Source: Leucoraja ocellata
Lineage: Eukaryota
Assembly: GCA_036785375.1 (NCBI GenBank)
Contig: JAWMAR010000384.1
Span: 186,001 to 250,000 of the forward strand
Direction of reading: 5' to 3'
Length of the DNA stretch: 64,000 nt
A model generated the notes under the pieces. That model was not told where the DNA came from and did no database searches. It worked only from the letters and a program-made list of their open reading frames with translations. Shown here piece after piece: positions 5,122 through 59,819 of the stretch. Position 1 is the stretch's first letter. Each line of letters starts with the position of its first letter. Position numbers and translations under genes: made by a program.

Positions 5122-5167
5122 ATGGCTGAATGGGTTTGGGTTCTCGCCTTGGTGACCTGTTTCCACT
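5122..5167 (+). CDS. IgL: Ig light chain cluster 1, leader exon (MAEWVWVLALVTCFH)
   Basis: Hydrophobic signal peptide followed by a phase-1 GTGAGT donor at 5168; splices in frame to the acceptor at 5263. Confidence 0.9.
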
Positions 5168-5263
5168 GTGAGTAGAGCGCAGAATAATTAATGCTGTATC
5201 GTTTTACATTCTGCTGTGTTTTTTTTCTAATGGTTCTGTATATTTATCTGTTATTTCTATCAG

Positions 5264-5602
5264 CTATAAACGCGGAGACTACCTTGACTCAGAGCCCGTC
5301 TATATCACAATCGCCGGGAACAACCGTGAAAATCACCTGTACACTGTCAGGGGGCAGCATCAGTAGCTTCTACACGAGCTGGTACTGGCAGAAGCCGGAC
5401 AGCAGCCCTGTCTTGGTGTGGTATCAAACCACCAGAGGCACCGGAATTCCAGACCGATTCACGGGATCCGTGGTCTCATCCACGAACCAAATGCATTTAA
5501 CCATCACCAACGTGCAATCGGAGGACGCGGCCGATTATTACTGTGCTGTGTGGGATGGCAGTACATACACCTTTGGGAGAGGAACCAAACTGAATCTAAG
5601 CA
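5264..5602 (+). CDS. IgL: Ig light chain cluster 1, germline-joined VJ exon (type I / sigma-cart-like), CDR3 AVWDGSTYT
   Basis: Polypyrimidine-CAG acceptor; V-set hallmarks (Cys, SWYWQK, DAADYYC) continuous with FGRGTKLNL; GTAAGT donor at 5603; no RSS between V and J. Confidence 0.95.
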
Positions 5603-7984
5603 GTAAGTAAAGTATTCACGGTGTGAAACAACGAATGGTTGAACTTGGGTTTTGCTTTCCATCACAAATCCTCGGTAGAAATATCCTATTAGACCTAAGT
5701 AGAACACAACGGGCCAGCCAGCATCTCCGGTAGACGTATAGATGGGCAATGTTTCGTGTCGGAACCTTTGCGAGAATTTCCCGAACGGAAATATCATCTT
5801 TCTTTGTGGACCAGAGATGCTGTCTGATCCGCTGGATTACTTCAGCACTTTGTGTTGTACTCAAGATGCCAACATTCGCGGTTCCTTGTTTCTCCTACGT
5901 GAAGTTGTGTTTTTTTAATAATCCTTTACCTCCATCCCTACAATACTCCGGGAAATCTGCGCTCATCTATCCGTGGCTTCTTGATCATCGTGGAATTTAA
6001 TGCCTTCGCAGACTGGCAGCTGTGCTTCAAAGTTGTTAAATTCTGGAATGACCTGAAAGTCTATTTCCCACTTTCTTCCCTGATGTTCACGAAACCTGCT
6101 CCTTTAACAGGAATACTGATTCTCTGATTTGAAGTATCCTCAAGTGGCGGGTTCCATGTGAGACTGCTGCTATTGGTCACTTTGCTTCAATATAAGCGGA
6201 ATGCAAACCAAAACTGTTGCCGTTACTTGAACAAATGTTTGGGAAATTATGAGATAACTTACAGTATATTGTGGACACGGATAATACCAACTCTGATAGT
6301 GGACCAAATAGAATCATTGGAAGCATCCAAAGGAAAGTTAATAAACATTTGGCAAGGGATGTCGGTGAATTTAAATGGGATATTTTTGGAATTGCAAATA
6401 CCCATTAGGGCAAATTGCGCGAAGTTGATTTCTGATCGTTTTAATGATACCATGAGGGTGAAGTGGCGTTTAGACAGGTTTACACGCGCTCCCTACAACA
6501 GCGCTAAAACTAATTGTCAGGGAAAAGGTTAAAAACAATATTTAAACGATTCGCACGGCAGCATTTCAATTCCCTTTGCGCGAAAGCGTGGAGGATTGTT
6601 GCAAGTCTGATTCAGCTCCGAAATGAGAAACAAGAGCAGAACCGGATTCTGGTTCATTTCTCGTTCAGCGAGCCATTGCCACCTTAGCTGATCACATTTG
6701 TGTGGATATGCCGTCAGACTCTTTGTACCCTTGACTCTTGTAGATCCTGCAAGGGATTTTGATGCTGGTTCTCCGATTGCCATCGAGAGTATGATATAGC
6801 AGAAAACGCAGACTGCTCATTATGCTGTTAAACATGATCCCTCTGAGTGTTGATTTTTTTTACGGGCAGGCAGTTGGTAGACCGACATGTCAAAAAAGCT
6901 TCAAAGAGCGAGACATCATTTTGCCATTTTCGGATAAATTAATGCAGAAATGGGCACACGTGTATACGAGGTTATTGCTGAATTGCCTTGAATCGTACGA
7001 TTGGAAGGAAATAGTACAGCGTCTTTAAATTCAGCATTAGCTTGAAATGTTTTTTAAAGTCCGAATATGTTGGATGTTAAACCCAGAGCTGTCTGGACAT
7101 GTGTCAGAAGGAATTTGAATCTGACCAAAACATTTCTTTAGTTTTACCTTTCATTTTTCTGCCCGCCACCATTATTGAATCATGAACTTTCTGGACGATG
7201 TGGAAGATTCACTAATAAGTAACATTCTAAAGACTGTTCCGGGATAGAATTGGGATTACTATTTAAACAAGCATTAATTTGGAAATGCTGCTCATTCTGC
7301 CAGGATTAGTTGTATTTACATTTTTTCTGCCCGTTTCCATGATCTGTAGAAAATCGTATGTTATATGTTTTATCAAACCTCGGATATACCCCCATAAAAA
7401 TTAACTTATCATGATTCTGCTGTATAAAATGAGGTTTATAAATGAACGGTACTTGTAAAGCCAGTGCAGTACACGGCCATAGAGCCACGGAGTTATGCAG
7501 CGGTGGAACAGTCCTTCAGTCCAGCTATTTCATGCCGACCGGGTTGCCCTACTTGAGCTGGTCCCATTTGCGCGTGTCAGGCCCATATCTCTTTGAACAT
7601 TTCTTATCCAAGTATTAATTCAAATGTTTATTTAAATGGTGTTATTGTACCTGCCTCATCAACTTCTTTGGGGAACTCATTCCATGGAGTCAACGCGTTA
7701 TGTGAACAAATGTTGCCCTGAACCTAAACCCACTAATTCTTCATTCTCCTACTACGGGGAAAAGACTCCCTGTGCTAACCCTATGTATTCCCCTCGCGAT
7801 TTTGTAACCGCCATGCGATCACCCTAAGGTCTTCTACACTCCAAGGACTAACGTCCTCGCATATCCAATCTATCCAACGAGTCGGCATATATCTTGCCTG
7901 GAGTCATTCCAGCTGAATCGATTCTGACTTTTAAATCAACTGATAAATAATTCATTTGTATTTATTTCAATTCTTTATTTCCAG

Positions 7985-8307
7985 GTCCGCGCTCCCCCAC
8001 CGTTTCCATTCTGGCGCCATCAATGGGTGAAGTCACCGCAAAAAGTACCGCCACCCTGGTGTGTTTGGTGAGCGGGTTCAACCCGGGCGTTGTGGACATT
8101 AAGTGGACCGTGGACGGCAGTGCGAGCAGTGACGGCGCTGCGACCAGCCGGGTCCAGCAGGAGAAGGACAACTCGTTCAGTGCGAGCAGTTACCTGACTC
8201 TGCCAGCCGCCTACTGGAACTCACACGATCTTTACTCCTGTGTGGTTAAACACGAAACCCAGGCAACCCCGATTAAGGCAGACATCGCCAGATCCAGTTG
8301 CCTCTAA
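7985..8307 (+). CDS. IgL: Ig light chain cluster 1, constant exon
   Basis: ttatttccAG acceptor, phase matches the VJ exon. C1-set motifs (ATLVCLV, FNPG, W, SSYLTL, YSCVVKH) and penultimate Cys (SSCL). Spliced CDS 708 nt = 235 aa. Confidence 0.95.
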
Positions 8308-8492: not shown

Positions 8493-10673
8493 ACAGATTA
8501 ATCTACTTACAATGCATCGTTGTCATTTTCTGTGCAAATGTCCTTGCCTTCAATAGAATAAAAACAATAATGTCCGATGATGCCAGTGTGTAGAAACTGG
8601 CGTTTTGTGAAACGTTGTTATATTTCAAATAAAGTGCGTGTTCATGATTGATCGTAGATCCATGTGTTAGGACAGTTGAAGGGACCGCTTGAACATACCC
8701 CCCTCACCCCCCCCCCCCCCCCCCCCCCCAGATAGAAGATATTAGGTGCAAACCAGTGTCTCCTATTTTGGATATCCCAAAAATACGGAAGCGCAGTCTT
8801 GGCATTACGCTAATATGCTTGAAGTACCCAAATGTGTCCAATCGTTCCGCACTAAATATCACAATATATCAGTGTTTATACCAGGAAAAACGCGATGACA
8901 AGTGTGGTTTGACGGATTAGTTAACCGCGGCATTACCGTGGTCTTTAATCAGCTCAACATTAATCACCAGAAGTGGTCATATATTTAAACAGTATAACGA
9001 GAGGAATAAATTTCAGGCTCGTAGGGGTGAGCCCAGTTGGCAGAGGAATGCGGGGGCTGGTGGGCAGGAGAACTCATCTCTGTACCGTAAAATAAAGTTG
9101 TCTGGCTGCTCACAATAACACAAGATGTAGCTTCGAGTAAATGTTCATCCAGCATGAAGTGGCGCTGCATTCGACGATGTTCTGTGGTCCCTGCAGTTAT
9201 CTTGCTCTTAGATGCTGAATCAATCCAAAAATATTGACATAATCTGCAGCACCTTTGGTATATTTACAGTTCTTGTCATTTATGGGGAGGCAAATGTAAA
9301 CTGCTTGATGTGAAAATGCTGGTATTGCCCAAGATGCAATTCGGTGCATTAAAACAATATATCAGGAGCCTACAGCTAGGATTAAGGTAAATGGAAACAT
9401 ATCAAAACGGATCCAGTTAGAGAGGGGCACAAGGCAAGGATGCTGTCTTTCTCTTACTCTCTTCGTTTTGTATATTGAACCCTTAGCACAAGCAATAAGG
9501 CAGAGAGAAGACCTGCAGGGGGTCAAAATGGGGGGAAAGAACATATAATTGGTCTTTTCGCTGATGATATCATTATTTTTCTTGAACGGCCAGATATATG
9601 TCTCCCAAATGTAATGAACCTATTTGAAACAAATGGATACTACTCAGGGTATAAACTGAATATAACAAAAACACAAATTATTTCATTCAATTATTCTCCA
9701 TCCCAACAAATCAGAGATGCATATAATCTGGAATGGAATTCTAAAACGATGCAGTATCTTGGTGTAACTATAACCAAAACACTTTCCAACTCGTTTGAAA
9801 CTAATTATAACAAAATTGAAGAAAACATCAAAAATGATGTTGAAAGGTGGTCGACCCTTCCTCTAGACTTCAGTGCCAGAATACAAACGGTAAAAATGAA
9901 TATCCTACCTAAACTACTATATTTATTCCAATCTCTCCCAATTAATGTCCCCCGAGATAAATCCATAGCCTGGGATAAAATGATCTCTAGATTCATTTGA
10001 AATAGCAAAAAAACAAGAATAAAACTAACAACACTTCAACTGCCGAAAAGCAAGGGTGGAATGGCTTTACCAAATCTGAGGAAATACATTTATGTAGCTC
10101 AACTCAGACCTCTGTTGGTGTAGACCTGATTATGAATCTCGATGGAAAGAAATTGAAAGGTAGATACAGGGTTACCAGATCCAGATTTTGGTGGGAGACT
10201 AATATCTGAGAGGGGCTTTGAGACACGCTATGGACCACATAGTAGCATTTACGTTAGAAATATGTAATGTTATAGTGGAAAAATACAAATTAAAAAGAGG
10301 GGTTCACGCATTGAAGTGGTTCGCATATGACTCAAAGTTTAACCAGGGGTGTATGATTCAAAATTCAAAGAATGGGCACAAAAAGGCATAATGGCAATGT
10401 ATACAGTTTCAGAAAATGGCGAGTTTATGAGCTTCCAAGATTTAAAGTCAAAGTCTGGTCTCGAAAACAATGATTTTTTTAGATACTTGCAATTAAGAGA
10501 CTACTTTACAAAAGAGGTAAGGCCAGAACTAGATGAAACTTCAAATAATGTGATCAAGGTGATTGTGGATGCATACAAACAGAAGGGGTCTCGGGTCAAC
10601 TCTGCTTTCTACCAAGCTCTGATGGGAAGCGGGGGAGAATCAACGCTCTACATAAAAACAAATTAGGAAGCAG

Positions 10674-10804
10674 NNNNNNNNNNNNNNNNNNNNNNNNNNN
10701 NNNNNNNNNNNNNNNNNNNNNNNNNNNNNNNNNNNNNNNNNNNNNNNNNNNNNNNNNNNNNNNNNNNNNNNNNNNNNNNNNNNNNNNNNNNNNNNNNNNN
10801 NNNN
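10674..10804. other. Assembly gap (N run)
   Basis: Run of N; the paralogous position in copy 2 is an (AAT)n(AAG)n microsatellite. Confidence 0.95.
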
Positions 10805-19104: not shown

Positions 19105-19150
19105 ATGGCTGTATGGGTTTGGGTTCTCGCCTTGGTGACCTGTTTCCACT
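19105..19150 (+). CDS. IgL: Ig light chain cluster 2, leader exon (MAVWVWVLALVTCFH)
   Basis: Signal peptide; GTGAGT donor at 19151. Confidence 0.9.
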
Positions 19151-19248
19151 GTGAGTAGAGCGCAGAATAATTAATGCTGTATCGTTTTACATTCTGCTGT
19201 GTTTTTTTTTTCTAATGGTTCTGTATATTTATCTGTTATTTCTATCAG

Positions 19249-19593
19249 CTATAAACGCGGAGACTACCTTGACTCAGAGCCCATCTATATCACAATCGCC
19301 GGGAACAAACGTGAAAATCACCTGTACACTGTCAGGGGGCAGCATCGGTAGCTTGTACACGAGCTGGTACTGGCAGAAGCCGGACAGCAGCCCTGTTTTC
19401 GTGTGGTATGAAACCACCAGAGGCACCGGAATTCCAGACCGATTCACGGGATCCGTGGACTCATCCACGAACCAAATGCATTTAACCATCACCAACGTGC
19501 AATCGGAGGACGCGGCCGATTATTACTGTGCTGTGCGGGATGGCAATACAGTCACATTCACCTTCGGGAAAGGAACCAAACTGAATCTAAGCA
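19249..19593 (+). CDS. IgL: Ig light chain cluster 2, germline-joined VJ exon, CDR3 AVRDGNTVTFT
   Basis: CAG acceptor, open V-J frame ending FGKGTKLNLS, GTAAGT donor at 19594. Confidence 0.95.
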
Positions 19594-21988
19594 GTAAGTA
19601 AAGTATTCACGGTGTGAAACAACAAATCGTTGAACTTGGGTTTTGCTTTCCATCATAAATCCTCGGTAGAAAGATCTTATTAAACCAAAGTAGACAGGAC
19701 GGGTCAGCCAGCTTCTCCGGTAGAAGTATAGATGGGCAATGGTTTGTGTCGGAACCTTTGCGAAAGGTTCCCGAACGGAAATATCATCTTTCTTTGTGGA
19801 CCAGAGGTGCTGTCTGATCCGCTGGATTACTTCAGCACTTTGTGTTGTACTCAAGATGCCAACATTCGCGGTTCCCTGTTTCTCCTACGTGAACTTGTTT
19901 TTTTTTTAAATAATCCTTTACCTCCATCCCTACAACACTCCGGGAAATCTGCGCTCATCTATCCGTGGCTTCTTGATCATCGTGGAATTTAACGCCTTCA
20001 CAGACTGACAGCTGTGCTTCAAATGCGAAGTTGTTAAATTCTGTAATGATCTGAAAGTCTATTTCCCACTTTCTTCCCTGATGTGCATGAAACCTGCTCC
20101 TATAACAGGAATACTGATTCTCTGATTTGAAGTATCCTCAAGTGGCGGGTTCCATATGAGACTGCTGCTATTGGTCACTTTGCTTCAATATAAGCGGAAT
20201 GCAAACCAAAACCTTTGCCGTTACTTGAACAAATGTTCGGGAAATTATGAGATTTCATTAACTTACAGTATATTGTGGACACGGATAGTACCAACTCTGA
20301 GAGTGGGCCAAATAGAATCATTGGAAACATCCAAAGGAAAGTTAATAAACATTTGGCAAGGGATGTCGGTGAATTTAAATGGGATATTTTTGGAATTGCA
20401 AATACCCATTAGGGCAAATTGCGCGAAGTTGATTTCTGATCGTTTTAATGATACCATGAGGGTGAAGTGACGTTTAGACAGGGTTACACGCGCTCCCTAC
20501 AACAGCGCTAAAACTAATTGTCAGGGAAAAGGTTAAAACCAAAATTTAAACGCTTCGCACGGCAGCATTTCAATTCCCTTTGCGCGAAAGCGTGGAGGAT
20601 TGTTGCAAGTCTGATTCAGCTCCGAAATTAGAAACAAGAGCAGAACCGGATTCTGGTTCATTCCTCGATCAGCGAGCCATTGCCACCTTAGCTGATCACA
20701 TTTGTGTGGATATGCCGTCAGACTCTTTGTACCCTTGACTCTTGTAGATCCTGCAAGGGATTTTGATGCTGGTTCTCCGATTGCCATCGAGTGTATGATA
20801 TAGCAGAAAACGCAGACTGTTCATTATGCTGTTAAGCATGATCCCTCTGAGTGTTGATTTTTTTTAAGGGCAGGCGGTTGGTAGACCGACATGTCAAAAA
20901 AGCTTCAAAGAGCGAGACATAATTTTGCCATTTTCGGATAAATTAATGCAGAAATGGGCACACGTGTATACGAGGTTATTGCTGAATTGCCTTGAACCGT
21001 ACGATTGGAAGGAAATAGTACAGCGTCTTTAAATTCAGCATTAGCTTGAAATGTTTTTTAAAGTCCGAATATGTTGGATGTTAAACCCAGAGCTGTCTGG
21101 ACATGTGTCAGAAGGAATTTCAATCTGACCAAAACATTTCTTTAGTTTTACCTTTCATTTTTCTGCCCGCCACCATCATTGAATCATGGACTTTCTGGAC
21201 GATGTGGAAGATTCACTAATAAGTAACATTCTAAAGATTGTTCCGGAATAGAATTGGGATTACTATTTAAACAAGCATTAATTTGGAAATGCTGCTCATT
21301 CTGCCAGGATGAGTTGTATTTACATTTTTTCTGCCCGTTTCCATGATCTGTAGAAAATCGTATGTTATGTGTTTTACCAAACCTCGGATATACCCCCATA
21401 AAAATTAACTTATCATGATTCTGCTGTATAAAATGAGGTTTATAAATGACCGGGAATTGTAAAGCCAGTGCAGTACACGGCCATAGAGCCACGGAGTTAT
21501 GCAGCGGTGGAACAGTCCTTCAGTCCACCTATTTCATGCCGACCGGGTTGCCCTACTTGAGCTGGTCCCATTTGCGCGTGTCAGGCCCATATCTCTTTGA
21601 ACCTTTCTTATCCAAGTATTAATTCAAATGTTTATTTAAATGGTGTTATTGTACCTGCCTCATCAACTTCTCTGGGGAACTCATTCCATGGAGTCAACGC
21701 ATTATGTGAACAAATGTTGCCCTGAACCTAAACCCTCTAATTCTTCATTCTCCTACTACGGGGAAAAGACTCCGTGCGCTAACCCTATGTATTCCCCTCG
21801 CGATTTTGTAACCGCCATGCGATCACCCTAAGGTCTTCTACACTCCAAGGACTAACGTCCTCGCATATCCAATCTATCCAACGAGTCGGCATATATCTTG
21901 CCTGGAGTCATTCCAGCTGAATCGATTCTGACTTTTCAATCAACTGATAAATAATTCATTTGTATTTATTTCAATTCTTTATTTCCAG

Positions 21989-22311
21989 GTCCGCGCTCCC
22001 CCACCGTTTCCATTCTGGCGCCATCAATGGGTGAAGTCACCGCAGAAAGTACCGCCACCCTGGTGTGTTTGGTGAGCGGGTTCAACCCGGGCGCTGTGGA
22101 CATTAAGTGGACCGTGGACGGCAGTGCGAGAAGTGACGGCGCTGCGACCAGCCGGGTACAGCAGGAGAAGGACAACTCGTTCAGTGTGAGCAGTTACCTG
22201 ACTCTGCCAGCCGCCTACTGGAACTCACACGATCTTTACTCCTGTGTGGTTAAACACGAAACCCAGGCAACCCCGATTAAGGCCAACATCGCCAGATCCA
22301 GTTGCCTCTAA
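21989..22311 (+). CDS. IgL: Ig light chain cluster 2, constant exon
   Basis: Intact C1-set domain. Spliced CDS 714 nt = 237 aa. Confidence 0.95.
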
Positions 22312-22496: not shown

Positions 22497-25095
22497 ACAG
22501 ATTATTCTAGTTACGATGCATCGTTGTCATTTTCTGTGCAAATGTCCTTGCCTTCAATAGAATAAAAACAATAATGTCCGATGATGCCAGTGTGTAGAAA
22601 GTGGCATTTTGTGAAACTTTGTTATATTTCAAATAAACTGCGGTTTCATGATTGATCGTAGATCCAGGTGTTAGGACAGTTGAAGGGACCGCTTGCAACC
22701 CCCTCTCACATGTATCCACCGATCTATCACTTGGCCAGCTGTATCGCACCTCATATCTATTTTACACATTTACCTCCTCTGTTCCAGGGGCACGACCTGA
22801 AATTATGCCTCGCAATTCTAATCAGCTGTTGCCTGACCCGGCAAGTCATGTGGAGTCCAATGGCGAAGTCTTGTTTTGCTGGATTTGTCCGGTATTATGA
22901 CCACCTCTCTGATCGAATTTACCTCTTCAATCCACTTCTTGTCAGACTTTTCCATGATCTACATTGATATTCTACACCCAGTTGCAAGTCGAACATATCC
23001 ATGCTTTGTCCCCATTTTCCTACCCCCGCGAGGCTTCCTTTACTTTTGATGGGCGACGGGTATTTTGGAAATACTGGTCAGCGTTTAGTGTTTCATCAAC
23101 GCAGTATTCCTCAACCTCCATACGAGCTTGGATATTTGGCCCAGTAAGCTCCACGGCGCCACGTGGTTTATTTACAAGAGGTAGTTCAAACAGGTACTAT
23201 AACAACATTTAATAAACATTTGGACAGGTACATTGATAGGAAAGGTTTAGAGGGATACGGGCCACCGCGGGCAGGTGGGAATTGTTGGGCCGAAGGGCAT
23301 TTCCCTACTGAATAACTCCTAGTGATACTTTTAAAAAATGAAGATAGGTGCAGGAGTAGGCATTTCGGCCCTTCGAGCCTGCACCGCCTATCAATATGAT
23401 CATGGCTGATACATGCTTACAGCGGATCTGCAGAAATGATCGGGACCTGTACAAAAAGAAGCCCAGTTGGCAGAGGAATGCGGGGGCTGGTGGGCAGGAG
23501 AACTCATCTCTGTACCGTAAAATAAAGTTGTCTGGCTGCTCACAATAACACAAGATGTAGCTTCGAGTAAATGTTCATCCTGCATGAAGTGGCGCTGCAT
23601 TCGACGATGTTCTGTGGTCCCTGCAGTTATCTTGCTCTTAGATGCTGAATCAATCCAAAAATATTGACATAATCTGCAGCACCTTTGGTATATTTACAGT
23701 TCTTGTCATTGATGGGGAGGCAAAGGTAAACTGCTTGATGTGAAAATGCTGGTATTGCCCAAGATGCAATTCGGTGCATTAAAACAATATATCAGCAGCC
23801 TACAGCTAGGATTAAGGTAAATGGAAACATATCAAAACGGATCCAGTTAGAGAGGGGCACAAGGCAAGGATGCTGTCTTTCTCCTACTCTCTTCGTTTTG
23901 TATATTGAACCCTTAGCACAAGCAATAAGGCAGAGAGAAGACCTACAGGGGGTCAAAATGGGGGGAAAGAACATATAATTGGTCTTTTCGCTGATGATAT
24001 CATTATTTTTCTTGAACGACCAGATATATGTCTCCCAAATGTAATGAACCTATTTGAAACAAATGGATACTACTCAGGGTATAAACTGAATATAACAAAA
24101 ACACAAATTATTTCATTCAATTATTCTCCATCCCAACAAATCAGAGATGCATATAATCTGGAATTCTAAAACGATTCAGTATCTTGGTGTAACTATAAGC
24201 AAAACACTTTCCAACTTGTTTGAAACTAATTATAACAAAATTGAAGAAAACATCAAAAAGGATGTTGAAAGGTGGTCGACCCTTCCTCTAGACTTCAGTG
24301 CCAGAATACAAACGGTAAAAATGAATATCCTACCTAAACTACTATATTTATTCCAATCTCTCCCAATTAATGTCCCCCGAGATAAATCCATAGCCTGGGA
24401 TAAAGTGATCTCTAGATTCATTTGGAATAGCAAAAAAACAAGAATAAAACTAACAACACTTCAACTGCCGAAAAGCAAGGGTGGAATGGCTTTACCAAAT
24501 CTGAGGAAATACTTTTATGTAGCTCAACTCAGACCTCTGTTGGTGTAGACCTGATTATGAATCTCGATGGACAGGGTTACCAGATCCAGATTTTGGTGGG
24601 AGACTAATATCTGAGAGGGGCTTTGAGACACGCTATGGACCACATAGTAGCATTTACGTTAGAAATATGTAATGTTGTAGTGGAAAAATACAAATTAAAA
24701 AGAGGGGTTCACGCATTGAAGTGGTTCGCATATGACTCAAAGTTTAACCAGGGGTGTATGATTCAAAATTCAAAGAATGGGCACAAAAAGGCATAATGGC
24801 AATGTATACAGTTTCAGAAAATGGCGAGTTTATGAGCTTCCAAGATTTAAAGTCAAAGTCTGGTCTCGAAAACAAAGATTCTTTTAGATACTTGCAATTA
24901 AGAGACTACTTTACAAAAGAGATAAGGCCAGAACTAGATGAAACTTCAAATAATGTGATCAAGGTGATTGTGGATGCATACAAACAGAAGGGGTCTCGGG
25001 TCAACTCTGCTTTCTACCAAGCTCTGATGGGAAGCGGGGGAGAATCAACGCTCTACATAAAAACAAAATAGGAAGCAGAATTAAAGATTCAGATA

Positions 25096-33891: not shown

Positions 33892-33937
33892 ATGGCTGTA
33901 TGGGTTTGGGTTCTCGCCTTGGTGACCTGTTTCCACT
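33892..33937 (+). CDS. IgL: Ig light chain cluster 3, leader exon (MAVWVWVLALVTCFH)
   Basis: Signal peptide; GTGAGT donor at 33938. Confidence 0.9.
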
Positions 33938-34034
33938 GTGAGTAGAGCGCAGAATGATTAATGCTGTATCGTTTTACATTCTGCTGTGTTTTTTTTTCTA
34001 ATGGTTCTGTATATTTATCTGTTATTTCTATCAG

Positions 34035-34379
34035 CTATAAACGCGGAGACTACCTTAACTCAGAGCCCGTCTATATCAAAATCGCCGGGAACAACCGTGA
34101 AAATCACCTGTACACTGTCAGGGGGCAGCATCAGTAGCTTGTACACGAGCTGGTACTGGCAGAAGCCGAGCAGCAGCCCTGTCTTCGTGTGGTATGAAAC
34201 CTCAAGAGGCACCGGAATTCCAGACAGATTCACGGGATCCGTGGAATCATCCACGAACCAAATGCATTTAACCATCACCAACGTGCAATCGGAGGACGCG
34301 GCCGATTATTACTGTGCTGTGTGGGACGAAAGTAAAAAAAAATTCACATTCGGGAGAGGAACCAAACTGAATCTAAGCA
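34035..34379 (+). CDS. IgL: Ig light chain cluster 3, germline-joined VJ exon, CDR3 AVWDESKKKFT
   Basis: Open V-J frame and canonical splice sites. The frame depends on an A9 homopolymer in CDR3. Confidence 0.93.
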
Positions 34380-36630
34380 GTAAGTAAAATATTCACGGTG
34401 TGAAAGAACGAATCGTTGAACTTATGTTTTGCTTTCCATCACAAATCCTCGGTAGAAAGGTCCTATTAGACCTAAGTAGAACACAACGGGCCAGCCAGCA
34501 TGTCCGGTAGACGTATAGATGGGCAATGCTTCGTGTCGGAACTTTTGCGAAAGGACTTTCCCGAAAGGAAATATCATCTTTCTTTGTCCTCCAGAGATGC
34601 TGTCTGATCCGCTGGATTACTTCAGCACTTTGTGTTGTACTCAAGATGCCAACATTCGCGGTTCCTTGTTTCTCCTACGTGAACTTGTGTTTTTGTTTAA
34701 ATAATCCTTTACCACCATCCCTACAACACTGAGAAATCTGCGCTCATCTATCCGTGGCTTCTTGATCATCGTGGAATTTAACGCCTTCACAGACTGGCAG
34801 CTGTGCTTCAAAGTTGTTAAATTCTGTAATGATCTGAAAGTCTATTTCCCACTTTCTTCCCTGATGTTCATGAAACCTGCTCCTATAACAGGAATACTGA
34901 TTCTCTGATTTGAAGTATCCTCAAGTGGAGGGTTTCATATGAGACTGCAGCTATTGGTCACTTTGCTTCAATATAAGCGGAATGCAAACCAAAACTGTTG
35001 CCGTTACTTGAACAAATGTTCGGGAAATTATGAGATAACTTACAGTATATTGTGGACACGGAGAATACCAACTCTGACAGTGGGCCAAATAGAATAATTG
35101 GAAACATCCAAAGGAAAGTTAATAAACATTTGGCAAGGGATGTCGGTGAATTTAAATGGGATATTTTTGGAATTGCAAATACCCATTAGGGCAAATTGCG
35201 CGAAGTTGATTTCTGATCGTTTTAATGATACCATGAGGGTGAAGTGGCGTTTAGACAAGTTTACACGCGCTCCCTACAACAGCGCTAAAACTAATTGTCA
35301 GGGAAAAGGTTAAAACCAAAATTTAAACGCTTCGCACGGCAGCATTTCAATTCCCTTTACGCGAAAGCGTGGAGGATTGTTGCAAGTCTGATTCAGCTCC
35401 GAAATTAGAAACAAGAGCAGAACCGGATTCTGGTTCATTCCTCGTTCAGCGAGCCATTGCCACCTTAGCTGATCACATTTGTGTGGATATGCCGTCAGAC
35501 TCTTTGTACCCTTGACTCTTGTAGAACCTGCAAGGGATTTTGATGCTGGTTCTCCGATTGCCATCGAGTGTATGATATAGCAGAACACGCAGACTGCTCA
35601 TTATGCTGTTAAACATGATCCCTCTGAGTGTTGATTTTTTTTACGGGCAGGCGGTTGGTAGACCGACATGTCAAAAAAGCTTCAAAGAGCGAGACATCAT
35701 TTTGCCATTTTCGGATAAATTAATGCAGAAATGGGCACACGTGTATACGAGGTTATTGCTGAATTGCCTTGAATCGTACGATTGGAAGGAAATAGTACAG
35801 CGTCTTTAAATTCAGCATTAGCTTGAAATGTTTTTTAAAGTCCGAATATGTTGGATGTTAAACCCAGAGCTGTCTGGACATGTGTCAGAAGGAATTTGAA
35901 TCTGACCAAAACATATCTTTAGTTTTACATTTCATTTTTCTGACCGTCACCATCATTGAATCATGAACTATCTGGGATAGAATTATGATTACTATTTAAA
36001 CAAGCATTAATTTGGAAATGCTGCTCATTCTGCCAGGATGAGTTGTAATTCATTTTTTTCTGCCCGTTTCCATGATCTGTAGAAAATCGTATGTTATGTG
36101 TTTTACCAAACCTCGGATATACCCCCATAAAAATTAACTTATCATGATTCTGCTGTATAAAATGAGGTTTATAAATGAACGGGAATTGTAAAGCCAGTGC
36201 AGTACACGGCCATAGAGCCACGGAGTTATGCAGCGGTGGAACAGTCCTTCAGTCCACCTATTTCATGCCGACCGAGGTGCCCTAGTTGATCTGGTCCCAT
36301 TTGCTCGTGTCAGGCCCATATCTCTTTGAACCTTTCTTATCCAAGTATTAATTCAAATGTTTATTTAAATGGTGTTATTGTACCTGCCTCGTCAACTTCT
36401 CTGGGGAACTCATTCCATGGAGTCAACGCGTTATGTGTACAAATGTTGCCCTGAACCAAAGCCCTTTAATTCTTCATTCTCCTACTACGGGGAAAAGATT
36501 CCATGCGCCAACCCTATGTATTCCCCTCGCGATTTTGTACACCGCCATGCGATCACCCTAAGGTCTTCTACACTCCAAGGACTAACTGATAAATAATTCA
36601 CCTGTATTTATTTCAATTCTTTATTTCCAG

Positions 36631-36953
36631 GTCCGCGCTCCCCCACCGTTTCCATTCTGGCGCCATCAATGGGTGAAGTCACCGCAGAAAATACCGCCAC
36701 CCTGGTGTGTTTGGTGAGCGGGTTCAACCCGGGCGCTGTGGACATTAAGTGGACCGTGGACGGCAGTGCGAGAAGTGACGGCGCTGCGACCAGCCGGGTC
36801 CAGCAGGAGAAGGACAACTCGTTCAGTGCGAGCAGTTACCTGACTCTGCCAGCCGCCTACTGGAACTCACACGATCTTTACTCCTGTGTGGTTAAACACG
36901 AAACCCAGGCAACCCCGATTAAGGCCAACATCGCCAGATCCAGTTGCCTCTAA
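36631..36953 (+). CDS. IgL: Ig light chain cluster 3, constant exon
   Basis: Intact C1-set domain. Spliced CDS 714 nt = 237 aa. Confidence 0.95.
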
Positions 36954-40100: not shown

Positions 40101-40363
40101 CCCTACGCGAGTCAAATAAATGGAGGGTAGACATTATCGGTACAAACTCATACCCTGATAGGTAGATGTAGCGTTGTGCTTTCATGTTGTGTTTTGGAGC
40201 AAGAGCCTGCAACACTAAACACAATGCTGTCCTAACCATTAGTATTTTATTTATCAAATAAACACCATTTTATTGATTTTATGCGAGTGGGCTAAAACAA
40301 CTGGAAACATTTCAGTCTTGTGTAGGAAGGAACTGCAGATGGTCGTTTAAACCGAAGATAGAC

Positions 40364-41251
40364 CTATGACTGCACACCTGTACATGGTACTAACACCATC
40401 ATCAAGTATGCAGATGATACAACGGTGATTGGCCTCATCAGCAACAACGATGAGCTGGCCTACAGGGAGGAGGTCCAGCACTTAGCAGCATGGTGCGCTG
40501 ACAACAACCTGGCCCTTAACTCCAAGAAGACCAAGGAGCTCATTGTAGACTTCAGGAAGTCCAGAGGCGGCACGCACACCACCATCCACATTAACGGGAC
40601 GGAGGTGGAACGTGTTTCTAGCTTCAGGTTCCTGGGAGTCAACATCTCCGATGACCTCTCTTGGACCCACAATACCTCTATTCTGATCAAGAAGGCTCAT
40701 CAGCGTCTCTTCTTCCTGAGGAGACTGAAGAAGGTCCATCTGTCTCCTCAGATCCTGGTGAACTTCTACCGCTGCACCATCGAGAGCATCCTTACCAACT
40801 GCATCACAGTGTGGTATGGCAACTGCTCTGTCTCCGACCGGAAGGCATTGCAGAGGGTGGTGAAAATTGCCCAACGCATCACCGGTTCCACGCTCCCCTC
40901 CATTGAGTCTGTCCAAAGCAAGCGCTGTCTGCGGAGGGTGCTCAGCATCGCCAAGGACTGCTCTCACCCCAACCATGGACTGTTTACCCTCCTACCATCC
41001 GGGAGGCGCTACAGGTCTCTCCGTTGCCGAACCAGCAGGTCGAGGAACAGCTTCTTTCCGGCAGCTGTCACTCTACTAAACAACGTACCTCGGTGACTGC
41101 CAATCACCCCCCCCCCCCCGGACACTTATTTTTTTTTTTAATTCAAATCGTTTGCTATGTCGCTCTTCAAGGGAGATGCTAAATGCATTTCGTTGTCTCT
41201 GTACTGTACACTGACAATGACAATTAAAATTGAATCTAAATCTGAATCTGA
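40364..41251 (+). mobile_element. Young 5'-truncated Rex1/Babar-like LINE with an uninterrupted RT C-terminal ORF (40365-41096)
   Basis: IIKYADDTTVIGLI, WCADNNLALN.KKTKELIVDFRK, FRFLGV, HP.H.LF.LLPSGRRYRS; TCTGAA-like tail; TSD ATAGAC at 40358-40363 and 41252-41257; inserted in a short interspersed repeat. Confidence 0.9.
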
Positions 41252-41511: not shown

Positions 41512-41647
41512 NNNNNNNNNNNNNNNNNNNNNNNNNNNNNNNNNNNNNNNNNNNNNNNNNNNNNNNNNNNNNNNNNNNNNNNNNNNNNNNNNNNNNNNNN
41601 NNNNNNNNNNNNNNNNNNNNNNNNNNNNNNNNNNNNNNNNNNNNNNN
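41512..41647. other. Assembly gap (N run)
   Basis: Run of N. Confidence 0.95.
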
Positions 41648-51790: not shown

Positions 51791-53056
51791 TGTGCCTATC
51801 CATTCCTCAGAATGACCTCACGGGCCAGACTTGTTTAAGAAATAGTTAGACATGTACATTGATCGGACAGGTTTGGAGGGATATGGACCAAGCACAGGCA
51901 AGTGGGACTAGTGTAGCTGAGGCCTTGTTAGCTGGTGTGGGCAAGTTGGGCCGAAGGGCCTGTTTCCACACTGTAGCCCTCTATGACTCTATGACTCAGT
52001 TTTCTAAACTCTGTAATTTCTCGACAATGATCTCAGCCAACCCAATTGTGCCAATTTAACTCCAAAGTTTCCAAGTGTCCTTATTTTCTGATTTGTTGTT
52101 TTACCCATTCAGAAATATGTTTCACTATATTATCGCCCACAATGACACATCCTTCAATGGGCCTTTTGTTTTGTCAAATGCGTTTCAAGGATTTATCGTG
52201 TTTTCATGTAATTGTGCAAAACGCAATTGTCTTTCACATATCTTCATTGCAATGATACTCCGCGTCTTCTTTTCCCTTCTCCATCAATCTGCCCCGAACA
52301 TTTCGAGTTGACAATTGAAGTATTAATGCTTTCAGTCCTATGTCGATGAATACGGAAATTGCGGGAGCGTCCTCTGAATTGTTAGCTCGTCACACAGTAT
52401 TATAACCTACAAATATACATATACACATTGAGAGCTGTTTTGGAGCTTAAACTCTCCAAGCACAAAGTATATGGTGATTTGCCGCAAAGCTTATGCGGTG
52501 CCATCGAAAACCTGCACGATTCATAGCATGTTATCTGTATGGGTAACAACAGCAAAGAAAATAATGGTTTATAAAGTTTCCACAAATTAAGGCTAAAATT
52601 AATTTCAAAAATCTTCGTAAAATCTTCAACGTTTTTTTTCACTCCTTCCAGCTCGGAATCAAAAATACGAAGTTGAAAATTGGAAATCTGAAACAAAAAC
52701 AGTATATGGAGGTGACACTCGGTAGCATCTGTGAAGAGCTGGTTTCTTTGGTTTTGGTGAAGCTTTATTGCCTTAACAAAAGGTCACGTCCTTTTTCCCT
52801 TCACGTGTATTCTCTGAGGTGTTGAGCATCCCTAGTATTTTCTGTTTCTGCACAAAATATATCTGCCTGCCTAACAACTGACTACAAAGCAGTTCCTACA
52901 TCTGGCCATGCAGTTTGCTATTCTTCTGTTCTCCTTTATGATTCTAGCGACCCCCCCCCCCCCCCCCCCCCACCCTCCGCCCTCTACCCTACGCCCAAGC
53001 ACAGAGAAAAGCCCGATGATTTGCCAATATCACTCTACAATGATCCAGTAATTCGA

Positions 53057-53090
53057 TGTCACGTGGATACAGATTTGCATAAATAATTAA
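53057..53090 (+). promoter_or_regulatory. Ig light-chain promoter, cluster 4 (CACGTG 53060-53065, ATTTGCAT 53073-53080)
   Basis: Octamer and E-box at the same 7-nt spacing as clusters 1-3, although the flanks are diverged. Confidence 0.85.
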
Positions 53091-53202
53091 AACTCGGTGA
53101 CGTTGTGATGTCGAGGAGTTCTTAAGGGGAGATTTCTCAAGAACCAGAAACGGACCTCTGTCGGAAAACGTTTAGATTCTGACCCTCGCCACCTCCTTCA
53201 CC

Positions 53203-53251
53203 ATGTCTGAATGGATTCGCGTTCTTGCCGCGTTCGTGTTCTGCTTCCATA
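53203..53251 (+). CDS. IgL: Ig light chain cluster 4, leader exon (MSEWIRVLAAFVFCFH)
   Basis: Kozak-like accATG, signal peptide homologous to clusters 1-3, phase-1 GTAAGT donor at 53252. Confidence 0.9.
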
Positions 53252-53341
53252 GTAAGTAGAAACCCTAATCACCAGGCAGCTGCTCTTTGCATTCTGCTGA
53301 TAGATTGTATGTTTACGAATATTAATTTGTTATTTCACCAG

Positions 53342-53674
53342 CTTCAATCGCAGTGATTTTGGTGACTCAGGACCCTACGTCCATCTCCACTTCTCCGGGG
53401 GAAACGGTCAAGATGACTTGTACCCTCTCAGGAGCCCAGATGAGCAGCTACTACACTAGCTGGTATTGGCAAAAGACCGGCAGCGCCCCGGTCCTTGTGT
53501 GGTATGAGACCACCAGAGCTTCTGGAATTCCAGATCGATTCACCGGTACCGTGGATAAGCCGAACAATATAATGCACCTGACCATCACCAACCTGCGAGC
53601 TGAGGATGTCGCCGATTATTACTGTTTAGTTGGAACTATTGGCTTCGGGAAAGGAACCAAATTGAATCTAAGCA
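53342..53674 (+). CDS. IgL: Ig light chain cluster 4, divergent germline-joined VJ exon, 6-aa CDR3 LVGTIG
   Basis: ttatttcaccAG acceptor; VTQDP...C...SWYWQK...DVADYYC-LVGTIG-FGKGTKLNLS; GTAAGT donor at 53675. Confidence 0.95.
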
Positions 53675-56120
53675 GTAAGTACAATAATGACCACCTGAAA
53701 ATTAGCACAAGGCAACATCCGCTTTCACTTTGATCCGATTTTTAAAGCGCTTTACAAGTTGTCCTCCAATTCTTGCGATATTACGGGCGAATTAAGTCGG
53801 TGGCTTTAAGTTGAAATTTCTGCCAGTTTAATGTATTCACGCAGGATATGTGAGTAGCCGCGAGTGAGAGATAGAGAAAGTCAAACGCGAAAGACACCTC
53901 CTGTTAGTTCAAGTTGGGGGAAATAAACGAGCAGGTGGGAGCGGTCAGCGACTAGGCAGCATCTATGGAGACACAGAGGTGTTCAACATTTCAGGTTGAG
54001 TCTCTGAATTGGGACAAGGTATAACGAGGCCCCCGCAGATGGTTCTGAGTTCCTCCACCAGTTTATTTTTGTTTTGCAGCATTTGCAGCATCTGCCATCG
54101 CTCATGCCTCCGTGTTTAAAATCTTGGAGCGGGCGGACGAATCACTTATTAAGCTGATCTTCTCATCAAGCGTTTCAGCCTTGAGAAGAGAAGGGAATGG
54201 TTAAGCGTGGATGTAACAAAACCATGCGTGATAGATTAAAAAGTCACTTAGCTGAGTGAGTGTGGAAAGCATCACTGACGCGCAGACGAAAATAGAGAAT
54301 TGCTGGTTCCGCCAGTGCAATATCGGCCTATTTCGCGTTTGTTATTCCCGAATCTTTCTCTTTCTATATTCTACATACTCGATAGTATGGAAATCTCCGT
54401 TATCGCGTCATGCTGATGTACACTTGTTCATGTCTAAGTAACTACTCGATTTAAAAAATCTCATTTTGTTATCACAGTTGTGGGATGGTTCTCTAATCTC
54501 AGGAAAATCTGATGCGTTGGCTTTCTCTAAATTTGGCCTCTTAATAGTCAACATTATTGTCACCATGAAGATCAAAACTCAGGATTACCCCTCAAGCATC
54601 TCATGCTTCCTATCTCCCTTTTCATCCTTAACATGCTCATGAAATCTATCTCTTTGCCTAATAGCTTTCCCCTCCCCGTTTGTTATTCTACGTGAATGGT
54701 CTGACTGTGTTTAACAATGCCTTATGAGGCATTTTGCTGTGACATTCGACGAGAAAATAAATTTCGAATTAACTTCCGAGCCGAAACTCATTTCCAGTAA
54801 ATACAAAAAACTCAATTATAAAATCTGCAAACGCCGCTATTTTATTTCACACTAAACACCTTCGTGAGCATTTTCTGATTCTGGCATATCATTCACTTTC
54901 GTTAACTTTTATTTGAATATCTTTGTATTTGGCAAGTTGTTCAGTCCAATATAACTGAACATGTTGATACTGTCGCGATAGAAATAATGTTTGGCTGCAT
55001 TAGTTTGGAATATGGTACGTCGTATATATATATATATAAATATATCGAAGTAAGTATTTTGTGCAATATTTACATTTTTTTAAATATTTATATCTTCAAA
55101 TCTACCATTGGTAAGGAGTCAATGAAGTATTTTATTAGACTTTTGAAGGGCTGACGATAAACTGCGAACTGTTCATTATTTCAATCGCGCTGGATATTTC
55201 AATCAAAAATCTTCCTTTATTCTGGACCATGCGGGCAAAATGGAATTAGTGACTTGAGTTTGAGGTTGACACGGATTGTGGCTTTCAACCTTCTATACGA
55301 TAAAATTAAAGATCCGTGCTTATTCAGGAACTTTTCAAAACGAATCAATGTTGCTGCGACTGTAGCGGTTGCAGCGGTTAGTAATATTTACACGTGCACT
55401 GTGTGAACTGTGCGAAGTGTGTTTTAAGACAGCAATAGAAGGGCAATACAGAAAACTAGATGTTGAAATCCTGAATGAAACGCAAAGTGCTCAGCACTTT
55501 GGTAAGTGGGTCAGCGGGTCAGGCAGCATCTGAGAAGGGTTCATTAAATTGTTGCGGAAATCAATCGGCATTGATCACAGAGAAATATTTTGAGTTTGGC
55601 GGCTAATCTCCAAATCTCGCCGCATTTAATTTCAAGGGTGGAATGAAATGGACCGAAGCATTTCTTTGTAAGACTCCCGCTTTAATTAATGTTGATTCCT
55701 CTGACCGACCCCATCTTCCCCCACCCCTACTCAATCGCCCAGTTTACATCAAGATTGTCCCAATTACATTTTCAACCACGAGGATGTAAATAGGATAAGC
55801 ATTTAATGGAACACAACGTATTTACGGGAGTGTCTCTTTCCAAAATATCTACCAAAAATCATTGATTTATTCTTACATTTGTGAATTGTTTCCAGACCTT
55901 TGGACAAACTGTAGTAATGATCTTCTGTTGCACAGACATTTTCACGTGTTTGCAAAATTAGATTAATTGTAAAGTAGTGGAAATAAAAACATAATACACG
56001 GTGTCAGGAGTAGACTACCCAATACTTCCAGTTGGATCCGAAGATACTCCATTCATATTAATCCTAAACGGCCTGAAAGATATTCTGTTTAAGAAAGAAC
56101 TACAGATGCTGGAAATATCG

Positions 56121-56322
56121 AAGGTAGACAAAAATGCTGGAGAAACGCAGCGGGTGAGGCAGCATCTATGGAGCGAAGGAATAGGTGACGTTTCGGATCG
56201 AGACCCTTCTTCAGACCTTCTTCCGTCTAAAGAAGGGTCTCGACCCGAAACGTCGCCTATTTCCTTCGCTCCATAGATGCTGCTTCACCCGCTAAGTTTC
56301 TCCAGCATTTTTGTCTACCTTT
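56121..56322. repeat. Long inverted-repeat interspersed element (~96-bp arms, 8-nt loop) in the cluster 4 J-C intron
   Basis: aaggtagacaaaaatgctggagaaac...tcagac mirrors gtctaaagaagggtc...gcatttttgtctacctt. Related copies or half-copies at ~1115, ~5700-5870, ~39590, ~58040-58200, ~59250 and ~63150. Confidence 0.85.
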
Positions 56323-56571
56323 GAAAGATATTCTGAATCTGTTCTCTCTGGTGCTGGGGGAAATGTTCTCGCTGCATGCAATCTTTCAAGACATCAAAGG
56401 AGTTTGCCTGTTTCGATGCTCTGAAATCCAGAGATTGCATCCCCATCTACTCAATTCTCCCTCACACGGCAAACAATCTATCTCTGGAACCCGGGGAAGC
56501 AAAAAAAAACCACTTGATTCGGAAGGCCAGCGTTAATAATCCACTATGCTGTACTTCTTTCTATTTTCCAG

Positions 56572-56894
56572 ATCCCCAGCCTCCCGCGGTGTCAGTCCTT
56601 GGGCCATCAGAGGAAGAAATCGCGGGAAAGGGCACCGCCACTCTGGTGTGTTTGGTGAACGGGTTCAACCCGGGCGTTGTGGACATTGAGTGGACGGTGG
56701 ACGGCAGTGCGAGAAGTGATGGCGTCGACACAGGCCGAGCCCAGCAGGATCAGGACAACACGTTCAGTACCAGCAGTTACCTGACTCTGCCAGCCGCCTA
56801 CTGGAACTCACACGAGCTTTACTCCTGTGTGGTTAAACACGAGACTCAGACAACCCCACTGAAGACAAACATCGCCAGATCTGGTTGTGCTTGA
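56572..56894 (+). CDS. IgL: Ig light chain cluster 4, constant exon
   Basis: ctattttccAG acceptor; PQPPAVSVLGPSEEE...ATLVCLV...YSCVVKH...SGCA. Spliced CDS 705 nt = 234 aa. Confidence 0.95.
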
Positions 56895-56930: not shown

Positions 56931-56936
56931 AATAAA
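56931..56936 (+). terminator. Candidate polyadenylation signal AATAAA, cluster 4
   Basis: First AATAAA after the stop, 36 nt downstream; not at the position used by clusters 1-3. Confidence 0.4.
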
Positions 56937-59819
56937 ATTCACGCACAGAGATTACATGTCTGTTTTCTTTTATAGATTTTTTTCAGTCACAGAAAATGCA
57001 CAATGTAATTTAATATAGAGAGGAGAGCAATAATGTCTCATTTATCGCCCTGCATTGCTCGACTATTTTGTACCAAAACAATGATATCCTAAATATGCAT
57101 TAATACATTAGTAAATATGCTGAGCAAAAGTTTTAACTTCAGCAAATTAACTTTACAACAGTTAGGACGGAAACGATGCAGTACACGAAGAGTTTATTCG
57201 CCATGGTTTTGTTTCCAGGCCATGGCGCCTAATTAAACGAATCCAAGTTTGTCTTTTTAAGTACGTTTATGGAAGCGTTAATTCGCAACCACCCAATTAT
57301 GTGCAGAGTCACCTTCTCAGATTATATTTTCACGACAGTGACAATGTTGCCACTGCCGTAGTCCAGTACTCCAGTAGGGTACTCCAGTACCGTAGACTTC
57401 ATTCAGACTTATTATGGAGTACACAACTCGCCGGGAAATTAAAACCGATCAAGTAAGATGGGAAAGTTTGCACTGGTTTGTAGAGGGCCATTGCAACAAC
57501 AACCGGAGAGGGCTAGGTAAATAAAGCAGAAGAAAATTGCTGGAGGAACTCGGGTGGTCGGAGGATCTGGTGTCAAAGAAACTGGCAATGTTTGGGGTCG
57601 AGTGCGTGCATCCGGAATTTTTGTGGAGGGGAGGGGGCCAATATAAAGAGCTAAGAGTGTGGGGGGAAACAGGGGCTGGCTGGTGAAAAGTGGAACTAGT
57701 TAAGAAGGGGCAGAAGGTGCCATGTTAAAGAGGGGGAGTGATACAGTCGGGAGAAAGCAGCTGGTGGGTGGGTGATAGAGACTAATGTGGGGAGAGAAGC
57801 AACAATGAGATAATAGGGGGTGGGGGGAGGGGGGGTGGATTTAGACACAGAAGGTGGAAGATAATGAGCAGAGACACGGGAGGCTGCATTTACGGAAACT
57901 GATAGTGGAGAAAGTGAGGGTTGGTGGGCACATGGAACCAGTTGGACAAGGTGTAGGAAAAAGAAAGTTGTGTAGATCTGATTGAAAGTTCATAATTTTA
58001 ATCAATTATGGAAATACACAGCCGTGTATCAAACTGGGATAGACACAAAGAGCTGTAGTAACTCAGCGGGACAGGCAGCATCTCTGGAGAGAAGGAATGG
58101 GTGACCAAGAAGGGTCTCGACCCGAAACGTCAATCATTCCTTCTCTCCAGAGAAGCTGCCTGTCTCGCTGAGTTACTCCAGCTTTTTGTGTCTATCTTCG
58201 GTTTAAACAAGCATCTGCAGTTCTTCCCCACACATATTATCTCACTGGGATAGTTTACATTCGAAAGGAAGGGATAAATGAGATGGTTTTCACTGGAAAT
58301 GAGATTGATAACAGGATTCAGCATTGAGATGTCACCATGATGATAAGATATGTCACTATGACGATAATAGTCACTATGACGATTAAAAAAAAACGATTCC
58401 CCAATGGGTGAGATGGTGCCCCTCAAATGAAATTGAATGAACTGTGGTCTAGCAGTTAGATCGGAAGCAGGGGGCGGGATGCAATAATCCAGGGTTTGCT
58501 CATTGGCTGGTTAAGCGGAGTTCTATTCCAGTCAGGAGAGGCGCAGATCGTAAAACGTTACGATGGGGAATAAACTGGGTGAAAACAAGAAGCAAACGGA
58601 TTAAGTCAGTCAGCAAAATAATAGCTTGTGGATTTGACCGTGGAGAATTAATAAATCGTCTGCGGTCCCAGGATTTTTGAGTGGGGTCCCTGTATGCTGA
58701 ATGGACTTGGAAGGGCATTTTGAACGGCCAAAACTGTCCCCGAAACGAGCTTGATAGAAGCTGATCCTTGAAAATTATGACGCGTGCGATGTGATGCCCC
58801 CCCCCCCCCCCGCCCCCCTCCCCCCCCCAACCCCCCAGTGAGCTCCAATTTCTCAACAAACCCCAGGGTCGTGCTAATTGGCCACTGTAACTTTCAGTTA
58901 ATGGAGGAGCATTAATTGACATTGTGGGCGAATAGATCACGAGGAAATAAGAAGGAGAGCGGGATGGATTGGGTTGTTCTCTGACCTGCGAACACTCCCA
59001 TCCATGTCGTTGTCAAATCTGGAATCGAAGCATGAAAATATCAAGCTGTCACCCGGATGTCCATATATGGGACCTCCCATTAATGTGGAATTATTGACAT
59101 TTATTTTCAATCATTCTGCTGAGAGCTTTTGTTATTTAAGTTATTCAAGTGGAAAATGTACTTACTCCTGGCCTACTCCTGCACCTATTGTCTATTGTCT
59201 ATTGTCTATTGTGGGTGACACCAAAGAAAGAGGAACTCATTATTATCGGTAGACATAAATGCTCGATTAACTCAGCGGGACAGGCAACGTTTCTGGTGAG
59301 AAGGAATGGGTGACGTTTTGGGTTAAGACCCTTCATCAGACCCTTCGTCAGCTTCATGTAAAATAACTCCAAAATGATACATTGACCACGAATGACAGCA
59401 CACGCACGTTGATTGAATGTAATGAATCCAAACCTTACGAAATTAATCTACTTTCATTATTTAAGAGAAAGGAATTCTGTAGGTTAGGTAGTGTAAAACC
59501 TAGAAATTAATTGTTCAGCAATGTCATGCGTAGAGCTGTTAGAATGTGAAAATGAATCCCATCAAGAAATTGGGCCATTCGGCCCATCAAGTCTACTCGA
59601 CCATTCAATCGTGGCTAATCCATCACTCTCCCCTTACCCCATTCTACTACCTTCTCCCCATAACCTCTGACACCTATGAATTTGTGCATTTATTTGGTAT
59701 CAAAAAATATATCAATGCATGGTTATCAAATTAATCAACATGCGCCAACGTGGATCGCATTCCACCTAATTCTAAATTTTGGGTAGCCACCAGAGAGGAA
59801 ACATAGTCGTCAACTACCA

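Follow-up and report, generated by a model that had tools for sequence, protein, structure and literature searches.

A germline-joined skate lambda light-chain gene with a six-codon CDR3 and its place among the short-loop lambda genes of cartilaginous fishes

The reason for which sharks and rays maintain entire light-chain families in pre-joined form in the germline is an old open question, and the available part of PMC2193156 poses the question whether joined genes serve special functions. The stretch of skate DNA analysed here (64 kb, hereafter the window) contains four germline-joined light-chain clusters, all on the forward strand, the last of which (cluster 4) carries a very short CDR3. 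If that loop is only a length variant, cluster 4 belongs to a known family as one of its ordinary members. We asked to which isotype the gene belongs, how widely such loops occur and where this one may have come from.

Anatomy of the clusters and integrity of the junction

Clusters 1–3 form 14-kb tandem units with 94–97% mutual identity:

5122 to 8307, forward strand: cluster 1, joined lambda; CDR3 AVWDGSTYT (9 residues) at 5545–5571
19105 to 22311, forward strand: cluster 2, joined lambda; CDR3 AVRDGNTVTFT (11 residues) at 19530–19562
33892 to 36953, forward strand: cluster 3, joined lambda; CDR3 AVWDESKKKFT (11 residues) at 34316–34348

Their CDR3s differ by 2 codons despite this identity, so length shifts come easily in the family, and the clearly different loops suggest fast germline change centred on the CDR3. 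No further Ig remnants were found by tblastn in the 64-kb window. Frames between the clusters (9479–9997, 24096–24545 and 40362–41093) we take to be reverse-transcriptase-like, of LINE type. Assembly gaps (N) occupy 10674–10804 and 41512–41647; the latter sits between clusters 3 and 4, and the distance between these two is therefore not fully sequenced.

Cluster 4 comprises the following features:

53073 to 53080, forward strand: Ig-promoter octamer ATTTGCAT, lying 130 nt 5' of the ATG, likewise in clusters 1–3
53203 to 53251, forward strand: leader exon, 16 codons plus 1 nt
53252 to 53341, forward strand: leader intron of 90 nt with GT..AG borders and 67% identity to clusters 1–3
53342 to 53674, forward strand: VJ exon of lambda (type II), joined in the germline and lacking an RSS
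53506 to 53511, forward strand: CDR2 of 2 residues (ET), IMGT limits placed by hand
53626 to 53643, forward strand: 6-codon CDR3 LVGTIG, predicted to form a tight hairpin with a 3-residue turn
53675 to 56571, forward strand: J–C intron, 2897 nt, unalignable to the neighbours' introns
56572 to 56894, forward strand: C-lambda exon including the stop, with a penultimate Cys for a putative bond to the heavy chain
56931 to 56936, forward strand: polyadenylation signal AATAAA

The CDR3 codons are TTA GTT GGA ACT ATT GGC, flanked by Cys (TGT, 53623–53625) and FGKG. They read exactly as the six-residue germline loop of a preliminary description of this DNA, which had also correctly given 9–11 residues for the neighbours (9, 11 and 11). 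That description further called the gene intact, and the octamer, leader, splice sites (GT/AG borders at both introns), C exon, Cys and AATAAA are indeed all present in this germline-joined VJ–C gene, along with an open frame of 234 aa ending in the penultimate Cys. The leader is almost the same as in Amblyraja and Leucoraja protein models, and one additional residue in FR1 (QDPT) marks the V branch of cluster 4. Genomic contigs continue from V through J into the intron, as expected of a gene joined in the germline, and searching 52700–55390 for exact matches to the heptamer and the nonamer gave none. A poly-C tract lies 5' of the gene, near 52950–52970. Palindromic short repeats occur at 56118–56324, within the J–C intron, and at 58038–58196.

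The far divergence of V and introns described earlier is confirmed: cluster 4 is ~69% identical to clusters 1–3 across leader–VJ and 81–82% across C, and its J–C intron shares a single 43-nt match with theirs. The framework dN/dS against clusters 1–3 is 0.17–0.19 at a dS of ~1.0 (0.36–0.38 in the C region), a sign of purifying selection that bears out the long retention proposed for the gene.

The short junction is no assembly slip, since ungapped contigs bridge it and extend into the intron in three of four public sequencing runs (X1, X8 and X9); the fourth, X2, has a 62-nt piece at the junction, too short to be counted as bridging. The contig of X1, possibly the source sample, shows 0 differences from cluster 4. 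Two further contigs of the same V type in X9 carry 9 extra bases in the junction. The single short-junction contig of X8 has T>C at 53644, where the Phe codon of J begins, turning Phe into Leu. Within 53000–53800, the depth in X1 is ~6 for contigs identical to the window versus ~18–22 for variant contigs of the same V type, which, depth being no copy number, hints at further copies of the cluster 4 branch.

Isotype of cluster 4

Two horn-shark proteins served as named comparators, WKK30313 (lambda) and WKK30312 (Igsigma-2). Cluster 4 is 63% identical to the former and 38% to the latter in V, and 72% and 44%, respectively, in C; more broadly, its C region shows 68–74% identity to lambda as opposed to 43–48% to other isotypes. 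The V tree places it in the lambda clade (94/93) with WKK30313, AAA59379 and sandbar-shark lambda, sigma-2 forming a separate clade. In structure, human lambda-6 ranks first both among single-domain PDB matches and in the fold comparison (TM 0.90). By hand numbering, CDR1 has 8 residues and CDR2 has 2. The available text of PMC5985310 gives 3–9 and 3–7 residues for lambda and a sigma-2 CDR2 of 7 in all species; the CDR1 thus falls inside the lambda range, the hand-numbered CDR2 lies one residue under it, and the 7 residues typical of sigma-2 are absent. A 2-residue CDR2 is common to cluster 4, clusters 1–3 and a sawfish paralog.

Clusters 1–3 closely resemble AAA59379, which the accessible portion of PMC4762898 assigns to type II. 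Because that list contains label errors (a wrong species, another accession under two types), our isotype call rests on the tree with named comparators. A sawfish accession that is also among our protein matches is labelled IgLL in the part of PMC12227049 at hand. The available sections of PMC5192425 and PMC4279169 report joining for every lambda gene of cartilaginous fish, so germline joining in cluster 4 is the family norm. Overall, judged from its sequence, cluster 4 is an Ig lambda (type II, NS3) light-chain gene.

This outcome bears directly on the preliminary description, which had placed the gene in type I and proposed it as an ortholog of the joined NS5 (sigma-cart) partner of nurse-shark IgM1gj, or else as a surrogate-like chain. 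The joined VJ, the short loop and the presence of a single divergent copy within the window would fit such a reading. However, V and C group with lambda and not with sigma-2. The lambda5 surrogate component consists of J–C without V. The IgM1gj partner is reported as sigma-2, with the pairing confirmed, in the available parts of PMC5192425 and PMC4279169, and cluster 4, being lambda, is not its ortholog. Orthology to sigma-2 is refuted by the V and C identities to the named comparators, by the separate clades and by the CDR2 length (2 versus 7 residues). As for the surrogate option, VpreB as described in the accessible part of PMC2193156 is a V without J plus an extended tail, while cluster 4 has a complete leader–VJ–C with no additional tail and hence is not a surrogate chain. 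We regard both versions of this reading as highly improbable.

Distribution and phylogeny of short loops

Three protein searches and cluster look-ups yielded 128 usable database proteins which, with the four window genes, make a set of 132 lambda rows. Short rows are over-represented in it, as one search (best 120 of 150) used a short-loop profile as query; a plain search with the window's own V returned 5 short loops among 43 cartilaginous-fish matches. Fifteen truncated, fused, mis-spliced or redundant rows were left out (P0007, P0062, P0063, P0075, P0096, P0100, P0123, P0124, P0141–P0146 and P0149), and the trees also omit a bat match (P0003) and 10 redundant Callorhinchus sequences (P0052–P0061). 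Most rows are protein models from genome annotation, DNA having been read for the skate genes only.

Among the matches listed, CDR3s of 5, 6, 8, 9, 11, 12 and 13 residues occur in 14, 3, 20, 48, 37, 9 and 1 of the 132 rows, respectively, the three of 6 residues all being skate, and none has 7 or 10. At the level of these models, the 5–6-residue CDR3 is a separate recurring length mode and no one-off. A gene-model artefact (a false V–J intron creating short loops) appears unlikely, as the short-loop protein models keep FGxG; in a horn-shark sigma-2 model (P0266), from a family reported as split, J is missing altogether. Short loops were found under 15 of 24 species labels (window included, among the matches listed):

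Chimaera: Callorhinchus KASDT
Sharks: Heptranchias LVSRT; Pristiophorus FAGRT; Heterodontus YAASI; Cetorhinus FTAKT; Carcharodon FIPNI; Carcharhinus YAART
Rays: Pristis (sawfish) YAART and YVAKI; Narcine FAART; two Mobula YAART; Hemitrygon YAART; Hypanus YSART
Skates: Amblyraja LVGNIG and FVSTIG; window cluster 4 LVGTIG

YAART is thus identical in one shark and four rays (Carcharhinus, Pristis, two Mobula, Hemitrygon). The other 9 labels lack a short row among the matches listed: Leucoraja (3 rows), Rhinoraja (8 rows), Squalus, Mustelus, two Scyliorhinus, Chiloscyllium punctatum, Hemiscyllium and Hydrolagus, with 1–8 rows each, which is weak evidence of absence. Ginglymostoma (nurse shark) has no protein among the matches listed in the protein searches. 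The first CDR3 residue is Y, F or L in 16 of 17 short versus 3 of 115 long rows (matches listed; rows not independent), the only short loop without a bulky first residue being that of the chimaera; this could reflect either descent or structural need.

The preliminary description had suggested searching shark, ray and chimaera genomes for joined type I genes with a short CDR3. The short loops are there in all three groups, but they are lambda and not type I. Its term "invariant" does not hold either, because the loop varies among skate genes (LVGTIG, LVGNIG, FVSTIG) and the same V branch also has loops of 8 and 9 residues.

A sigma-2-clade light chain of the coelacanth (Latimeria, AHG59326; rows P0314/P0286) has a 5-residue CDR3, SAQKH, one hint that minimal loops have been fixed repeatedly. 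It accounts for both of the short junctions among 46 in the distant matches.

Our trees use 90–121 columns only; the one built from leader, V and J excludes the CDR3, 8 partial-leader rows and 25 of the 28 rows of a second subfamily. In this tree ten short rows alone form a clade (98/95), one per species among the matches listed, from 4 sharks and 6 rays (P0079, P0080, P0098, P0147, P0102, P0148, P0064, P0015, P0020 and P0049); the V-only tree recovers the same ten together with two long catshark rows (99/91). The clade is marked by leader W[VI]GV plus FR2 WSE, a signature present in 10 of 17 short versus 2 of 87 long rows (matches listed). Cluster 4 lies outside it and lacks the signature, and its loop, of 5–6 residues with Y, F or L first, is of the kind that characterizes the YAART clade. 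None of the 17 database skate rows among the matches listed falls in that clade.

The branch of cluster 4 itself (100/99 in the V tree, 100/82 with leader and J) unites it with both Amblyraja short genes and sawfish YVAKI, and also holds long loops from Pristis (9 residues), Rhinoraja (9) and Leucoraja (8). The Heptranchias and Carcharhinus rows, placed together, and the Callorhinchus row lie elsewhere, so that on V the short rows require 5 label changes and are not one clade. Monophyly, which the preliminary description had put up for checking, failed: with 107 rows, a tree that unites every elasmobranch short row in a single clade is rejected (p-AU 0.012). A sister relationship between the whole cluster 4 branch and the ray YAART genes is compatible with a 59-row subset (p-AU 0.42), albeit not demonstrated. 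The database proteins closest to cluster 4 among the matches listed are all skate (Amblyraja 89–95%, Leucoraja 89%), and the nearest non-skate V is that of sawfish YVAKI (82%). Identity to the sawfish YAART V is 56%, and the loops LVGTIG and YAART agree at 0 of 5 positions.

In the C-region tree the sequences group by species, which makes it uninformative for orthology and points to sequence exchange between clusters; with such exchange at work, V trees need not follow the junction.

Two further groups of lambda-like chains were seen. The second lambda V subfamily (28 rows, P0110–P0140) has a long CDR2 and an 8–9-residue CDR3 and draws on the same species-specific C pool. Cetorhinus and Carcharodon have an additional divergent lambda-like chain (P0191/P0311).

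Origin of the loop, predicted structure and known systems

The recurrence of the very short loop makes it likely, as far as the protein models go, that it is a design long kept in cartilaginous-fish lambda. The account of cluster 4 that we favour, somewhat above even odds, is that of an ordinary lambda chain in which an old short-loop cassette sits on a new V framework, giving a recessed L3. In an early batoid, duplication, or else gene conversion between adjacent clusters, would have placed a 5-codon CDR3–J cassette on a second V framework. The sawfish would retain both forms (YAART and YVAKI); skates would later have gained one Gly codon and seem no longer to possess the original copy. Transfer of this kind would be expected to leave YAART on different frameworks, as in Carcharhinus and the rays (Carcharhinus and Pristis V are 67% identical although both carry YAART), and YVAKI on the cluster 4 framework beside YAART in the sawfish. 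The species-grouped C regions are likewise expected under exchange between clusters. On the other hand, the link between cluster 4 and YAART passes through YVAKI alone, the short rows are non-monophyletic, the cluster 4 branch carries long loops too, and 9 of 24 species labels have no short row among the matches listed.

Some of these points also fit an independent origin, in which an 8–9-codon loop was cut down within the sawfish and skate branch; any likeness to other short loops would then come only from a tight hairpin needing a bulky first residue, and cluster 4 would be one more length variant widening a hard-wired lambda repertoire. The non-monophyly of short loops on V, the long-loop paralogs sharing leader and V with cluster 4, the quick change of CDR3 length among clusters 1–3 and the 5-residue loop of the coelacanth sigma-2-clade chain all agree with it. 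It is harder to reconcile with the gap in the length distribution (0 rows of 7 or 10 and 14 of exactly 5 among 132, matches listed) and with sawfish YVAKI, which has the length and Tyr start of YAART on the cluster 4 framework. We consider such shortening possible, if rather unlikely.

A bolder extension of the cassette account is that a lambda cassette of minimal L3 has been kept since before the shark–chimaera split, with CDR3–J rather than V as the selected unit, gene conversion holding it at about one copy per lineage and the product serving, within an innate-like antibody, as dedicated partner of one heavy chain; in skates, cluster 4 would then stand in for the YAART gene. This whole scenario we hold to be doubtful. 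Improbable, in our estimate, is also the proposal that, early in life, short-loop lambda pairs by preference with a single germline-joined heavy chain to give an antibody of fixed specificity, parallel to nurse-shark IgM1gj with sigma-2. That pair is a precedent (available parts of PMC5192425 and PMC4279169), joined kappa genes are expressed in pups (accessible part of PMC2193156), and among the matches listed the short-loop gene is retained one per species, with near-constant YAART in rays. Against this, the skate loop is not constant, and in the clearnose skate, as described in the sections of PMC5192425 available, embryos and hatchlings are dominated by sigma-cart and not lambda, which is the adult-dominant isotype.

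The AlphaFold model of cluster 4 (pLDDT 96) predicts a closed hairpin: strand F extends over Leu-Val, the next three residues form the turn, and strand G resumes at Gly-Phe. The octamer promoter would drive transcription in B cells, with no RAG step needed by the anatomy of the joined gene, and the C-terminal Cys would bond the chain to an IgM or IgW heavy chain. With the tight L3 hairpin and the 2-residue CDR2, the light chain would present a face that is flat or recessed. The bulky first CDR3 residue (Y, F or L) would pack the VH–VL interface in the space left by the missing loop, and the heavy-chain CDR3 or a bulky antigen would fill the site. Since so little of the light chain would protrude, specificity would depend on the heavy chain, which would make most of the antigen contact.

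The literature searched, with subscription journals mostly outside its coverage, gave no description of a short-CDR3 lambda class, and a search of the available part of the elephant-shark supplement (PMC3964593) gave nothing relevant. The sandbar-shark YAART chain corresponds to an old database entry (AAC59643) and may already have been shown in print. The significance of the locus comes mostly from the shark–ray 5-residue clade and less from cluster 4, which shows the short-loop trait on a second framework: a lambda chain with a 5-residue loop, one per species among the matches listed and nearly unchanged across a shark–ray split of at least 200 Myr (PMC2193156, part available), is a testable candidate for a specialised joined chain.

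Compared with known systems, cluster 4 shares with cartilaginous-fish lambda (NS3, sandbar-shark; AAA59379, WKK30313) the joined VJ–C minicluster, the octamer and a short CDR2, at 60–63% identity in V and 68–74% in C. It differs from the usual lambda (CDR3 of 8–12 residues with a small first residue) in its 6-residue CDR3 with a bulky first residue, its CDR2 of 2 and its extra FR1 residue. With the shark–ray 5-residue clade it has in common a very short loop, Y, F or L at the first position and the FGKG start of J, but leader and V framework are different and the loop has 6 residues instead of 5. Models of that clade are:

XP_051887750, XP_062929402, XP_059837293, XP_069789815, XP_067911425, XP_078408983 and XP_041058882

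The preliminary description ascribes a very short CDR3 to the joined NS5 gene of the nurse shark. This sigma-2 partner of IgM1gj is germline-joined like cluster 4 but belongs to another isotype, most genes of which rearrange, so that a joined one is exceptional there, unlike in lambda with its uniformly joined genes. Neonatal expression and pairing are known for the NS5 chain (PMC5192425 and PMC4279169, parts available). Finally, human VRC01-class antibodies have a 5-residue CDRL3 (PMC6936959, part available) and offer an analogy in which a minimal L3 opens the site, as it may in cluster 4. According to the same portion of that paper, a crowded epitope is more easily contacted with an L3 of 5 residues, a mammalian precedent, and such loops occur in 0.1% of mouse light chains. 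The VRC01-class loop arises from rare somatic junctions and is not homologous to that of cluster 4, which is hard-wired; the skate gene suggests that a minimal L3, a rare somatic product in mammals, has been fixed in the germline more than once.
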